From Spirochaetia bacterium (GTDB taxonomy: Bacteria; Spirochaetota; Spirochaetia; UBA9216), in the NCBI GenBank assembly GCA_965140585.1, contig OZ223265.1, forward strand, positions 343,118 to 407,117: a stretch of 64,000 bases of DNA, in the 5' to 3' direction. Position numbers and translations under genes: made by a program. This document shows, in pieces, positions 17,911-21,187 of this stretch; within the stretch, counting starts at the first letter, position 1, and each line of letters begins with the position of its first letter. A model generated the notes under the pieces. The model saw only the letters and a list, made by a program, of their open reading frames with translations, was not told where the DNA came from and did not search any database.

Positions 17911-17977
17911 AACCCTTCCCTTCTTCAATATTCTTTATGTGTAAATTTAAAATTTGCTGATTACTGAATTTGTTCAT
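17894..17977 (-). CDS. putative 27-aa leader ORF overlapping the coaX start
   Basis: GGGGAGG RBS then ATG at 17977: MNKFSNQQILNLHIKNIEEGKGYGSCG. Its stop lies just inside coaX. Confidence 0.35.
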   Translation of the reverse strand: MNKFSNQQILNLHIKNIEEGKGYGSCG

Positions 17978-18121
17978 TAGTACCTGTCCTCCCCAGATCA
18001 AGTCTGAACCAATTAATAAGATATGATTTAAATTCTGCACATCATGGCCGCTGAACCAGTCGACCTGATTATCTCAATTTAATTACTCCCGCTTGTATAG
18101 TCAAGAAGAGACGGCTATTTA

Positions 18122-18150
18122 TTGCCGGGATTGTTTTTCTGGTATATATT
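18122..18150 (+). promoter_or_regulatory. sigma70-like promoter of the lipoprotein/PqqD cassette
   Basis: TTGCCG-N17-TATATT, ending 9 nt before ATG 18160. Confidence 0.5.
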
Positions 18151-18159
18151 TGGAAACAT

Positions 18160-18372
18160 ATGAAAAAAATTACAGCCGTATTACTAATGTTAATGCTAAT
18201 AATCGGTTTTTCCCTTTCCGCCTGTAATCCCGATCCCGGGGCAGGTACCGACACGACCGATACCGACACGGAACAGGATTATCCGGATACTGATACTGAC
18301 AGCGATACTGCAGCATCAGATTCAGATACTTCAGAACCTGACGACACTTCCGGAGCGTCTACCTCAGGCTGA
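18160..18372 (+). CDS. small acidic Asp/Thr/Ser-rich lipoprotein, candidate precursor or substrate of the downstream modification cassette
   Basis: MKK, hydrophobic core and lipobox LSA-C22. The 49-aa mature part has 13 Asp, 11 Thr, 7 Ser and no Lys/Arg. Confidence 0.75.
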   Translation: MKKITAVLLMLMLIIGFSLSACNPDPGAGTDTTDTDTEQDYPDTDTDSDTAASDSDTSEPDDTSGASTSG

Positions 18373-18424
18373 CATGCGTGGGGGCCTTATTACAGAAAAC
18401 AGCAGTTTTTCATAAAACAAAAAT

Positions 18425-19594
18425 ATGATAAAGTCTTTTTGTAAAATGAAATTAAGCACAAGACTATCAGAGGAAGAGAATTTCATACTCAGTTTCTTTA
18501 CGGATCGAAAAGACCGGACTGCAGAAGCCGGGATAAACACCGCCGATCTTGACTGGAATTTCATTTTTAAACTTCTTCAAACTCATAAACTGCTGAGAAG
18601 TTTCGCACATCTTATATTGGATGAGTCGGAAAGCAGACTTTCTGAAAGGACAATATCTGCATTGCAGCGGATTGATAAACTTGCCGCTGTAGAAAAAAAG
18701 ATATATTTTGAAAAACTTGAACTTATAAAATCACTTCTTGAAAAAGCCGGTATCGAGCTCTGCCTCTTAAAGGGATTCAGCCTTGGCAGCGCCGAAGCCC
18801 CGCGGGATGTGAACGACCTGGATCTCCTGATAAAGGAGAAGGATATAGCGGAAGTACACCGGATTATGCTTGAAAACGGATTCACCTACAAGGGTGATGA
18901 CAGAAAGCTTTATCTGAAAAGCGAAGATCTGGACGGTAATATAGACTCCCTTAAAAACTGGACTAATCAGTTTGAATACCTCGCGAAAAAAGATGATCTG
19001 CTCACTGAAATTCACACCCACCCATTTGAAAGGAGCCGGGTTTACAGTTTCAACCTTGATAAACTATGGCTGCACAGCGACCTTCTTCTCGAACGGGCGG
19101 TTTATTCCAAAGATTTAGACTGCAGAATACTAACACCATCAGACAACCTCTGGCTTATCTGTATGCATAACGCTTTCAGGCGCTCGGTTGTAAAATATAA
19201 GTTTACACTACGGTACATTCTTGATATGAAATACCTGTGTTCACAGCCCGTTTTTGACTGGAAAGACTTTCTTGCGACTGCAGAAATCACCGACACTGTA
19301 GGTTTTTCGCTATTTTCACTGGAAATGCTTGAATACTTTTTTTCAGGAACAGTACCGGAAACAGTCATCATTACCCTTAAAACAAGGCTTCGAAAAAGCG
19401 AACGTTTTTTCAGACTCATCCAGCATGGCTGCCTTCACTCAATGACCGAATCAAAGCGGACATTCACAGTCCTTTATAGCATACTGCTGCCCTTCGTATA
19501 CGGGGGACAGTTAAAAAACAAGGTGAAAAGCATCTTCATCATACATCGGATCTTTAAACCGCCGGTAAAACGCTTTTTCAGAGGCTCAGTCTGA
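18425..19594 (+). CDS. nucleotidyltransferase family protein (NTP_transf_5-like, as found beside lasso/PqqD loci)
   Basis: Motifs DLDW, LLKG, PRDVNDLDLLI, EIH, LICMH, LRYILD and FDW. Confidence 0.8.
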   Translation: MIKSFCKMKLSTRLSEEENFILSFFTDRKDRTAEAGINTADLDWNFIFKLLQTHKLLRSFAHLILDESESRLSERTISALQRIDKLAAVEKKIYFEKLELIKSLLEKAGIELCLLKGFSLGSAEAPRDVNDLDLLIKEKDIAEVHRIMLENGFTYKGDDRKLYLKSEDLDGNIDSLKNWTNQFEYLAKKDDLLTEIHTHPFERSRVYSFNLDKLWLHSDLLLERAVYSKDLDCRILTPSDNLWLICMHNAFRRSVVKYKFTLRYILDMKYLCSQPVFDWKDFLATAEITDTVGFSLFSLEMLEYFFSGTVPETVIITLKTRLRKSERFFRLIQHGCLHSMTESKRTFTVLYSILLPFVYGGQLKNKVKSIFIIHRIFKPPVKRFFRGSV

Positions 19595-20049
19595 TGGCGG
19601 GAGCTGTTAATATTCTCTCCATGAAACCCGGCGACAGGGCGTGGGTCCCGGTACTTTCGGGAAGCATGGCGCCCGGATTTCTGCCCGGAGATGAAGTTGA
19701 GATTCTTATTCTTGACCGGATAGAGGCAGAATCTGAACTCAAGCCCGGTATGATTGCAGTATTTTATGAAAACGGCATTATTTACTTTCATCGTATACTT
19801 TTTATAAATATATTTTCAGGAAGAATCTATCAGAAGGGCGACGGCAATCCCGAAGGCTCATGGATTTCAGCAGGCCGGATTATAGGAAAAGTAACATCCG
19901 GCAGACGAAGCAGTCAGGACGGGAGTCTGGAATATGATGATGGAAGATGGACAACAGGGCAGGCCAGGCGACAGTTTATAAAAACACAAATCATGGCCGT
20001 ACTGCGATATGCTAAAGCTGTATCGAAAAGGATAATAAAGGGTGTTTAA
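19594..20049 (+). CDS. S24/S26-family peptidase (signal peptidase I-like, no TM anchor)
   Basis: Motifs SGSMAP..PGD, FHRI, KGDGN and IIGKV. TGATG overlap with the upstream gene. Confidence 0.8.
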   Translation: MAGAVNILSMKPGDRAWVPVLSGSMAPGFLPGDEVEILILDRIEAESELKPGMIAVFYENGIIYFHRILFINIFSGRIYQKGDGNPEGSWISAGRIIGKVTSGRRSSQDGSLEYDDGRWTTGQARRQFIKTQIMAVLRYAKAVSKRIIKGV

Positions 20050-20884
20050 ATTCATGCTTGAGGCAGGCGAAAAAACAGTCTGCCTTGATTTCAGAAAAAG
20101 ATGGCTCAGGGATAACATGCTTGAGTACTTCATGGGACAAAACAGCAGCAGCCTTCTCGATGTGCGGCTGAAAATAAGGCTGATGGATCGGAATACTGAA
20201 ATTGATCTTGTTCCCGATTCTCTTTTTCATGCAAAACGCCGGAATGGTGACGGATTCACCATCGAGGGCGGCATGATGTCGGGAATGTACGAGGCCGAAA
20301 GAAAAACAGCGGAACTTCTGATTCATCCTTTACTTGTTGAAACTTCCGCATCAAGAGTGTTTGAGCAGATTATCTATCAGGCTTATGTAACCGCCTGTGA
20401 TGAATCATACGGCTTGATGCCGCTTGTGCATTCCAGCGGAGTTATAAAGGACGGCAGGGGATACCTGTTTGTAGGAGCCTCTGAAGCCGGCAAATCAACC
20501 GCCGCGGCGCTTTCTTCCGGTTATAAAATTATAAATGATGAAATATGCATCGCCGACATATCCAAAGAAGTCCCTAAGCTTGTTTCGACCCCCTTCAACG
20601 GGCTGTACAGAATCAAGCAGTCCGGGCGCGCCCCGCTTGCAGGTATTTTCATACTGAAAAAAGCGGACGAACACAGTGTTGCTCCGGTAAGCGGCGCGGC
20701 AGCGGTCAAACTAATCGCATCTCAGCTGATTCCGCCGGTGGGCCTGGGAGATATCATGCAGAGCGAGGATTACCTTAAACAGATTGATATTGCCTCTGAA
20801 TTATGCAGTAGAGTTCCGGTATACGAGCTGAGCTTCAGAAAAGACCCCGGGTTCTGGAAAGAGATTGAGCAGATTTCAGACTGA
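20042..20884 (+). CDS. HPr-kinase-related P-loop kinase (lasso kinase/ScmC-like)
   Basis: VHSSGV..G.GYLFVGASEAGKST (Walker A), INDE, TPFNG, PLAGIFIL and VPVYELSF. Confidence 0.78.
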   Translation: MFKFMLEAGEKTVCLDFRKRWLRDNMLEYFMGQNSSSLLDVRLKIRLMDRNTEIDLVPDSLFHAKRRNGDGFTIEGGMMSGMYEAERKTAELLIHPLLVETSASRVFEQIIYQAYVTACDESYGLMPLVHSSGVIKDGRGYLFVGASEAGKSTAAALSSGYKIINDEICIADISKEVPKLVSTPFNGLYRIKQSGRAPLAGIFILKKADEHSVAPVSGAAAVKLIASQLIPPVGLGDIMQSEDYLKQIDIASELCSRVPVYELSFRKDPGFWKEIEQISD

Positions 20885-20905
20885 GCCGAAAACAGGAGAT
20901 TTTAA

Positions 20906-21187
20906 ATGAATACAGAGAATAAACTTCCCCTAACCGTAACTATAGCCTCCAACCTGAGCGAAAGAGATCTCGGTGATGAAATAGTGGTTGTGATATCAGG
21001 CAGTGATGAAATTCACACATTCAGGGAAACCGGTATGGAAATATGGAAGATGCTGGCAAAAGGCCTGAATACCGGAGATATTATTTCCGCTATGATGAAA
21101 GATTACGGTGTTGAAGAAGAAGAGCTTGAGACCGATCTCAAGCTCTTTCTTGAAGACTGCAGATCGAAGAAACTGATAAATTATTAA
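20906..21187 (+). CDS. PqqD family protein / RiPP recognition element
   Basis: 93 aa with the PqqD pattern R.LGDE.VV, ETG.EIW..L, YGV and D...FL......LI. AGGAG RBS. Confidence 0.85.
   Translation: MNTENKLPLTVTIASNLSERDLGDEIVVVISGSDEIHTFRETGMEIWKMLAKGLNTGDIISAMMKDYGVEEEELETDLKLFLEDCRSKKLINY

Follow-up and report, generated by a model that had tools for sequence, protein, structure and literature searches.

The gene cassette and its setting

A cassette of five genes lies in a stretch of 64,000 nucleotides from the genome of a Spirochaetia bacterium (GenBank assembly GCA_965140585.1, contig OZ223265.1, positions 343,118 to 407,117 of the forward strand), which as a whole is referred to here as the window. 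The original prediction, made from the letters and their open reading frames (ORFs), described this cassette as a modification system of the kind that acts on peptides that are made by ribosomes and modified after translation (RiPPs), dependent on a RiPP recognition element (RRE), devoid of a cyclase and directed at the lipoprotein encoded by its first gene. The five genes are all found on the + strand, as had been proposed. They encode an acidic lipoprotein of 70 aa (18160-18372), recognized as an ORF with a lipobox; an enzyme of nucleotidyltransferase fold that matches PF14907, NTP_transf_5 (389 aa; 18425-19594); an apparently soluble serine peptidase of the S26B, Sec11/SipW-like type (151 aa; 19594-20049), assigned by TIGR02228, alignment and PDB profile; a P-loop phosphotransferase of the ScmC family with a GTG start (280 aa; 20042-20884), assigned by TIGR04249, PF27840 and fold, and referred to below as the kinase; and an RRE of the PqqD family (93 aa; 20906-21187; PF05402).

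The translational coupling that had been claimed for the enzyme genes can be read from the sequence, as a TGATG stop/start overlap at 19592-19596 and an overlap of 8 nt at 20042-20049, while the gaps inside the cassette measure 52, 21 and 90 nt. The PqqD gene is preceded by an AGGAG ribosome-binding site. The GTG start of the kinase is kept in a sister genome of the same genus (G001), whose codon at the alternative ATG encodes Asn. The flanking genes are, as described before, coaX (PF03309, 9e-56) and rhaM (PF05336, 2e-31). The source genome (G000) is 98.5% complete and carries the cassette on a contig that we call C2.

Identity of the cassette enzymes

When the proposed domains were checked with hidden Markov models (HMMs), NTP_transf_5 and PqqD came out clearly; the peptidase and the kinase matched their models below threshold, and these two assignments were strengthened by alignment, PDB profile and fold search. 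HMMs, motifs and fold search bear out this part of the original prediction: the cassette depends on an RRE and combines a kinase-like enzyme with an NTP_transf_5 enzyme and an S26-like peptidase. The NTP_transf_5 protein matches PF14907 at 3.5e-25 in Pfam, its motif G-x-S...D-x-D is intact (residue 117) and it exists as a single copy in the whole genome. It is predicted to carry out the second tailoring step. The PqqD protein, also present as a single copy in the whole genome, matches the whole PF05402 model at 9.4e-13, and among NCBIfam models it fits lasso_PqqD_Bac best, at 6.5e-9 and below the cut-off of that model. Its predicted role is that of a leader-peptide binder.

The peptidase matches TIGR02228, the model of archaeal-type signal peptidase I, at 8e-8, with 32.3 bits against a cut-off of 51.85. 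In an alignment of 14 homologs, S24 and M25 of the SGSM motif, R67 of the HR box and GD of the KGD box are invariant, and H66 of the HR box is nearly so. In the PDB its profile matches SEC11A/C, subunits of the human signal peptidase (4e-9). With the catalytic Ser at residue 24 and no hydrophobic span in the segment before it, MAGAVNILSMKPGDRAWVPVLSG, the enzyme looks soluble. This soluble Sec11-like enzyme is the predicted leader peptidase.

The kinase-like protein matches the ScmC model TIGR04249 at 1.2e-9, with 37.9 bits (36.2 bits in a genome scan with the same model) against an equivalog cut-off of 125 bits, and HprK_rel_A at 3.9e-4 (19.6 bits; cut-off 200); PF07475, Hpr_kinase_C, gave no match to it in Pfam up to E 1. 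All its close relatives carry a precomputed assignment to PF27840, the ESM Atlas name being ScmC, an assignment taken from precomputed and Atlas annotation only. In the alignment the Walker A motif GxxxxGK[ST] and D166 are invariant, and the adjacent E167 is nearly invariant. An AlphaFold model built from 38 homologs reached a predicted local distance difference test score (pLDDT) of 95.4. A Foldseek search with it placed ATP-PEPCK on top (E 3e-7, TMq ~0.5 (0.52)), followed by the HPrK/P structures 1knx, 1kkl and 1kkm (3e-5 to 1e-4), and a PDB sequence search with the kinase profile returned generic P-loop matches only. Fold and P-loop thus justify the label of kinase, while the family appears to be ScmC and not Hpr_kinase_C. 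The enzyme is predicted to be a peptide kinase.

Matches to NTP_transf_5 and PqqD, together with a ScmC match below the cut-off, were also seen in both control genomes, those of Deinococcus radiodurans and Bacteroides thetaiotaomicron, and related modules may therefore exist in these well-studied organisms.

Homologous cassettes in other genera

The kinase is rare and patchily distributed, being found in 3 of 61 relatives, 7 of 401 genomes sampled from the phylum, 11 of 401 from the class and 6 of 64 genomes of one family, including 5 of the 17 of one genus. The closest metagenomic kinases are 58% and 56% identical to it. A scan of genome contigs with the single kinase sequence returned the sister genome only, and a scan of metagenome contigs with the kinase alignment returned only five distant relatives, used here for context. 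More distant metagenomic relatives have the gene order kinase-PqqD-rSAM-S26, where rSAM denotes a radical S-adenosylmethionine enzyme. The comparison is based on 16 cassettes from other Spirochaetota genera, each taken with up to 20 kb of its surroundings (two of them, L052 and L020, are short contigs), whose six-frame translations were scanned with HMMs built in this analysis.

The kinase and PqqD genes are present and adjacent at all 16 loci. The S26 peptidase accompanies them at 14 and an NTP_transf_5 ortholog at 12, and 14 loci also encode an orthologous ABC-2 permease, adjoined by an ATP-binding cassette (ABC) ATPase partner in the loci inspected. A gene for an rSAM/SPASM protein directly follows PqqD in 8 of the 16. 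In two genomes the peptidase and the kinase are fused into a single ORF (L019:8567-9889, 440 aa; L024:8668-9948, 426 aa), which argues that both enzymes act jointly.

A family of precursor peptides

A small ORF with a conserved N-terminus was seen in the first seven of these loci, and a leader-bearing peptide is encoded within ~1.5 kb of the enzymes in 16/16. The leader HMM was built from six loci, and the other ten (10/10) are independent detections. The leader follows the consensus MKKxYxxPx[ILV]x[ST]Exhxh-GVFGxY and is continued by a hypervariable core. Y5, P8, GVFG and Y23 are invariant among 29 sequences, and YxxPx[ILV] occurs in 18 of 18 leaders, the one of the source genome included. 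According to PMC6784204, the lasso leader peptides of actinobacteria share a conserved YxxPxL motif, and the presence of YxxPx[ILV] here fits the best match of PqqD to a lasso chaperone model. The only universal hydroxyls of the family are those of Y5, S/T13 and Y23.

No Pfam or NCBIfam model matches these peptides. In a collection of 5.8 billion proteins they form 78 clusters, several of them on the same contigs as kinase homologs, and two clusters are named 'putative RiPP precursor' and 'RiPP' in their source. A further peptide, MKKTYQKPAIIHTEKIEA..., follows a distant ScmC cassette with the order S26/kinase-PqqD-rSAM on a metagenome contig (L036:93-3276). It has the first half of the leader in common with the family and lacks GVFG, and the YxxP leader module therefore looks older than the GVFG subfamily.

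The probable precursor of this genus is encoded away from the enzymes

A search of the source genome with the leader HMM (135,360 six-frame segments) returned one clear member of the family, not on C2 with the enzymes but on another contig, at C7:163779-163988 (E 4.9e-7). The peptide has 69 aa, with the leader MKKTYTKPVVQSEKLEFGVFGRY and a core rich in Gly, Asn and His; its gene has an AGGA-type ribosome-binding site upstream and a GC-rich hairpin with a T-run downstream. The locus consists of a divergent MFS gene, the peptide, the hairpin and an ABC exporter (G000:C7:163560-165985; L025:9559-11986), the last being a fused ABC protein of 625 aa without a C39 peptidase domain. The sister genome shows the same MFS-peptide-ABC order; its ortholog of the peptide is 91% identical and lies 808 kb from the cassette.

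Two further candidates were rejected. The best match to the leader HMM in the window (E 3.9) is a Met-less stretch of 21 codons at 17961-18023, and the gaps of the cassette are too small for a hidden local precursor. A match on contig C3 (E 0.007) lies inside an ORF of 436 aa on the opposite strand, has no start codon and was judged a chance match.

Between the two genomes of the genus, which differ at synonymous sites by a dS of 0.5-0.8, the ratio of nonsynonymous to synonymous substitution (dN/dS) is 0.07 for the C7 peptide, 0.11 for the nucleotidyltransferase, 0.14 for the S26 peptidase, 0.15 for the kinase, 0.12 for PqqD and 0.09 for the lipoprotein. With purifying selection on all six genes, the cassette is not decayed. 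The nearest relative outside the genus in the kinase tree is the L051 locus (clade support 99/98), which has a precursor peptide and an ABC/ABC-2 pair beside the cassette. Because its precursor adjoins the enzymes, the split arrangement of the present genus is a derived state.

The original prediction had envisaged modeling the RRE with its peptide. For PqqD with the C7 precursor, the predicted complex scored 0.54, and the best of three controls 0.00, which lends weak support to binding. Of 80 solved complexes, 58 passed the mark applied to this score, as did 2 of 110 mismatched pairs. With a score of 0.60 or less, just 7 of these 80 complexes passed, but both of the passing mismatches lie in this range. 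Contact agreement among the runs was at least 89%, and the pLDDT of the partner at least 47. Solved RRE-leader complexes exist, and a pass may thus reflect memory in the prediction program.

Missing partners and the radical SAM enzyme as an accessory

The original prediction had noted that a lasso cyclase, a B2 protease, an rSAM enzyme and an exporter are all missing here. Three of these absences were confirmed, and extended to cognates elsewhere in the genome. The source genome contains three matches to Asn_synthase (PF00733), at C7:122132, C7:103783 and C3:121687, none of them on the contig of the cassette, and the one closest to the C7 precursor is about 40 kb away from it. For the B2 protease, no PF13471 match was found in the whole 98.5%-complete genome. 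The window encodes no rSAM enzyme, the four SPASM proteins of the genome lie at other, unrelated loci, and the best score in a genome-wide SPASM/rSAM search against the cassette-type rSAM was 62 bits, compared with 581-604 bits for true orthologs. The absence of an exporter is correct locally, but it does not extend to the remote precursor, which is followed by an ABC exporter on C7. No ortholog of the ABC-2 permease of the related cassettes was found in the genome.

The distribution of the rSAM gene bears on how its absence is to be understood. The 8 loci that have it are exactly those whose peptide has a Cys-Cys pair toward its C-terminus or Cys as its last residue; this C-terminal feature occurs in none of the 8 loci that lack the enzyme, and it is also absent in the present genus. 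On the kinase tree the trait needs five changes, two of them forced by well-supported branches, and it flips between close relatives (L049 versus L050, L056 versus L057). Since its presence tracks the C-terminal Cys of the peptide, the rSAM enzyme is an accessory. In turn, since the trait flips between close relatives and follows the Cys feature, the form without it is a recurrent and coherent state. The match also predicts what the rSAM enzyme does.

Proposed function and its chemistry

On this evidence we consider it probable that 18425-21187 is the trans-acting module of an uncharacterized ScmC-type RiPP family, and that its substrate is the C7 peptide and not the lipoprotein. In the mechanism that we propose, the PqqD RRE would first bind the leader at its lasso-like YxxPx[ILV] stretch. 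The ScmC-type enzyme would then transfer phosphate from ATP to a hydroxyl of the peptide, for which the invariant Tyr after GVFG and the Ser residues of the core are candidates. In a third step the NTP_transf_5 enzyme would decorate the phosphate, by analogy with PsmN, possibly with a group derived from a deoxythymidine diphosphate (dTDP) sugar. Subsequently, the S26 peptidase would cut off the leader, plausibly after the invariant V-F-G. Signal peptidases require a small residue at position -1 and an aliphatic one at -3, and V-F-G fits this rule. Finally, the ABC exporter encoded beside the precursor would secrete the product.

The chemistry of phosphorylation followed by nucleotidylation or glycosylation is proposed by analogy with lasso peptide tailoring. 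PMC8498205 describes homologs of HPr kinase whose target in lasso precursors is the C-terminal Ser, which they phosphorylate, and, for pseudomycoidin, a nucleotidyltransferase that adds a hexose to the phosphate of the precursor. In 3 of the 16 related loci, belonging to three families, genes for dTDP-L-rhamnose (rmlA, C, D, B) adjoin the cassette (L010:11883-15302; L024:4988-7289; L053:3151-6628). At L024, rmlA-rmlC-rmlD stand directly upstream of the NTP_transf_5 gene and in the same orientation. A rough estimate of the chance of such adjacency ranges from 7e-5 to 4e-3. The rml genes of the source genome itself lie at C7:434-438 kb. These neighbors hint at a dTDP-sugar donor. It is conceivable, and for now a tentative proposal more doubtful than likely, that ScmC, NTP_transf_5, S26 and PqqD together mark out a novel class of RiPPs. 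Its linear peptides would be phosphorylated and then decorated with a group derived from a nucleotide or a dTDP sugar, possibly rhamnosyl-phosphate, and this would be the step that sets the class apart. Leader (YxxPxL) and RRE would be of the lasso type, the leader peptidase a cytoplasmic Sec11-like enzyme, and a thioether made by the rSAM enzyme an option for Cys-Cys cores. In this genus the system would have been split across the chromosome and the lipoprotein recruited for immunity or as a sink for a cationic, His-rich product.

Several observations weigh against the assignment of 18425-21187 to the C7 peptide. The link between the two rests on co-occurrence at the level of the family and not on local context, and no promoter motif common to the cassette and the C7 locus was found, shared words being limited to 7-8-mers. 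The distances among kinases and those among leaders are weakly correlated (Mantel rho 0.19, with 52 of 2000 permutations as high), and this correlation is not used as support. The score of the PqqD-precursor complex falls in the weak band and the fold of the partner is uncertain. The kinase is assigned at the level of fold and P-loop only, with no match to PF07475. The cores share no conserved Ser or Thr, and in at least one member of the family the invariant Tyr is followed by no residue with a hydroxyl. In addition, the C7 exporter, in which transmembrane and nucleotide-binding domains are fused, is unlike the pair of ABC ATPase and ABC-2 permease found at 14 of the 16 other loci and could be unrelated.

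Alternative explanations

A first alternative is that the enzymes act on a non-peptide target, such as a rhamnose-containing surface glycan or lipid carrier, the peptide being a regulator or a bystander. The rml genes beside the cassette in 3 of the 16 loci would suit this explanation, as would a gene resembling chain-length determinants near the L010 cassette and the setting in the window, where rhaM and a sugar ABC importer adjoin the cassette; nor are NTP_transf_5 and PEPCK-like folds specific to peptides. Against it stands the PqqD RRE of all 16 loci, each time with a peptide that bears a known RRE-binding motif, as well as the fusion of the kinase to an S26 enzyme resembling leader peptidases in two loci. 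Moreover, the presence of the rSAM enzyme tracks the C-terminal Cys of the peptide perfectly (8/8 versus 0/8), which points to the peptide as the modified object in the family. We regard a non-peptide target as unlikely.

A second alternative is that of the original prediction, in which the lipoprotein is the precursor; the cassette would phosphorylate it and then nucleotidylate or phosphoglycosylate it, either ahead of its lipid anchoring or afterwards. The sequence of the lipoprotein is MKKITAVLLMLMLIIGFSLSAC. Its signal, MKK-ITAVLLMLMLIIGFS-LSAC, fits the lipobox pattern [LVI][ASTVI][GAS]C in a pattern match, and the mature part, in which Asp, Thr and Ser are abundant, has 13 Asp, 2 Glu and no Lys or Arg, with a net charge of about -15. 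In comparison with the sister genome the changes are mainly synonymous, with one in-frame indel of 6 nt, a pattern that marks it as a real gene. The ORF (18160-18372; L011:6102-6308 in the sister genome) seems to be absent from the protein collection for both genomes, and gene callers probably missed it. Among the 15 small lipobox ORFs of the genome it is the sole one in which the fraction of Asp, Glu, Ser and Thr reaches 0.55 or more, and it has no paralog.

Its role as a precursor would agree with its Ser/Thr-rich composition, with its conservation in the sister genome under purifying selection, with the lack in this genus of a leader peptide beside the enzymes, and with its position 52 nt upstream in the same orientation; no terminator-like site was found between its stop and the NTP_transf_5 gene, and it is probably cotranscribed with the enzymes. 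Yet neither at the 16 homologous cassettes nor in the protein collection was a homolog or relative of the lipoprotein found, which, as far as sequence comparison goes, is an orphan specific to the genus. The YxxPx[ILV] motif is absent from it, whereas a dedicated leader peptide exists at all 16 loci and, on C7 and its counterpart, in both genomes of the genus. Furthermore, the lipoprotein has a Sec/lipoprotein signal, while the RRE, the kinase and the anchor-less S26 enzyme are predicted to be cytoplasmic. We consider it very improbable that the lipoprotein is the precursor, and the original prediction is not supported on this point. Lipoproteins serve as immunity proteins in lantibiotic clusters, and given this precedent, as well as the charge of about -15 set against a predicted product that is cationic and rich in His, it may be speculated that the lipoprotein is an immunity or sink protein.

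No less improbable is a non-functional, decaying remnant that has lost its rSAM enzyme, ABC-2 exporter and precursor. The adjacent precursor and ABC/ABC-2 pair of L051 are indeed missing here, and neither the ABC-2 permease nor the cassette rSAM has an ortholog in the genome. The four enzyme ORFs, however, are intact in two genomes at a dS of 0.5-0.8 (dN/dS 0.11-0.15), with catalytic motifs intact and translational coupling kept, and the remote precursor is itself conserved. The rSAM-less state also recurs, being found at 8 of 16 loci in other genera, where it goes with cores that lack a C-terminal Cys.

The region upstream of the cassette

The region between the divergent coaX and lipoprotein genes (17929..18159), which includes the promoter region, differs from its counterpart in the sister genome by 11 mismatches in 231 nt. 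Within it, 17958-18089 has a single mismatch in 132 nt, compared with a dS of ~0.5 in the neighboring genes. This conserved region has no Rfam match, and folding it gave nothing significant (z -0.3 and -1.2). On its - strand an ORF of 27 codons, preceded at 9 nt by a GGAGGA ribosome-binding site, runs into the start of coaX. Sigma-70-like sites are found at 18122-18150 (+) and at 18104-18076 (-), a number that indicates no enrichment (2 versus 6.8 expected). Comparison with a genome of the same family (G006) showed synteny for coaX-pdxS-pdxT alone, the other side being different, and the boundaries of an insertion were not fixed by it.

Significance and comparison with known systems

ScmC-type cassettes are defined as a family in databases, but in the searchable literature, outside which subscription journals and supplements lie, no tested function, product or published precursor was found for them. 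No paper was found there on SynChlorMet or on ScmC with radical SAM, and nothing relevant, among the papers listed, on PF14907/NTP_transf_5 or on HPr kinase in combination with rSAM/SPASM or RRE/S26. A precursor family with a recognizable leader can now be paired with enzymes of the ScmC type, and the cassettes without an rSAM gene separate the chemistry of kinase, nucleotidyltransferase and peptidase from radical chemistry. RiPP mining that demands an adjacent precursor would miss or misassign split systems such as this one, in which the probable substrate is encoded on another contig in the source genome and 0.8 Mb away in its sister.

The likeness to both the lasso tailoring sets and SynChlorMet-type cassettes, seen already in the original prediction, is upheld. 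As in the lasso tailoring sets (paeninodin PadeK, pseudomycoidin PsmK/PsmN and the B1 RRE), there is a PqqD-type RRE, which has a lasso chaperone model as its best NCBIfam match, and the system shares with lasso clusters a YxxPx[ILV] leader, a P-loop kinase of HPrK/PEPCK fold and a PF14907 nucleotidyltransferase. Unlike lasso clusters, neither the cassette nor the C7 locus encodes a cyclase or a B2 protease, and the leader peptidase would be of the S26/Sec11 type. The kinase belongs to the Pfam family ScmC and not to Hpr_kinase_C, and the cores are long, Gly-rich and linear-looking, with a C-terminal Ser in some members of the family only.

The S26B signal peptidases of the Sec11/SipW type have a Ser box, a His-Arg box and a KGD box, and canonical S26 enzymes have an N-terminal membrane anchor. 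The three boxes, with SGSM as the Ser box, are conserved here, but the enzyme has no such anchor and belongs to a RiPP cassette, in which its gene is coupled or fused to that of the kinase.

The SynChlorMet (SCM) cassette, defined by the NCBIfam models TIGR04249-04251 and by PF27840 in Pfam, comprises the paired rSAM/SPASM maturases ScmE and ScmF. The present system resembles it in having a ScmC-domain protein beside a PqqD homolog, and the rSAM/SPASM protein of 8 of the 16 relatives matches ScmE at 1.9e-33, among its best matches and below the cut-off. It differs from SynChlorMet in that the ScmC equivalog cut-off is not reached, the genome has no cognate rSAM enzyme, NTP_transf_5 is an added component and a precursor family can be identified. 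Our verdict is that the system represents a split, rSAM-less variant of an uncharacterized ScmC-type RiPP system.

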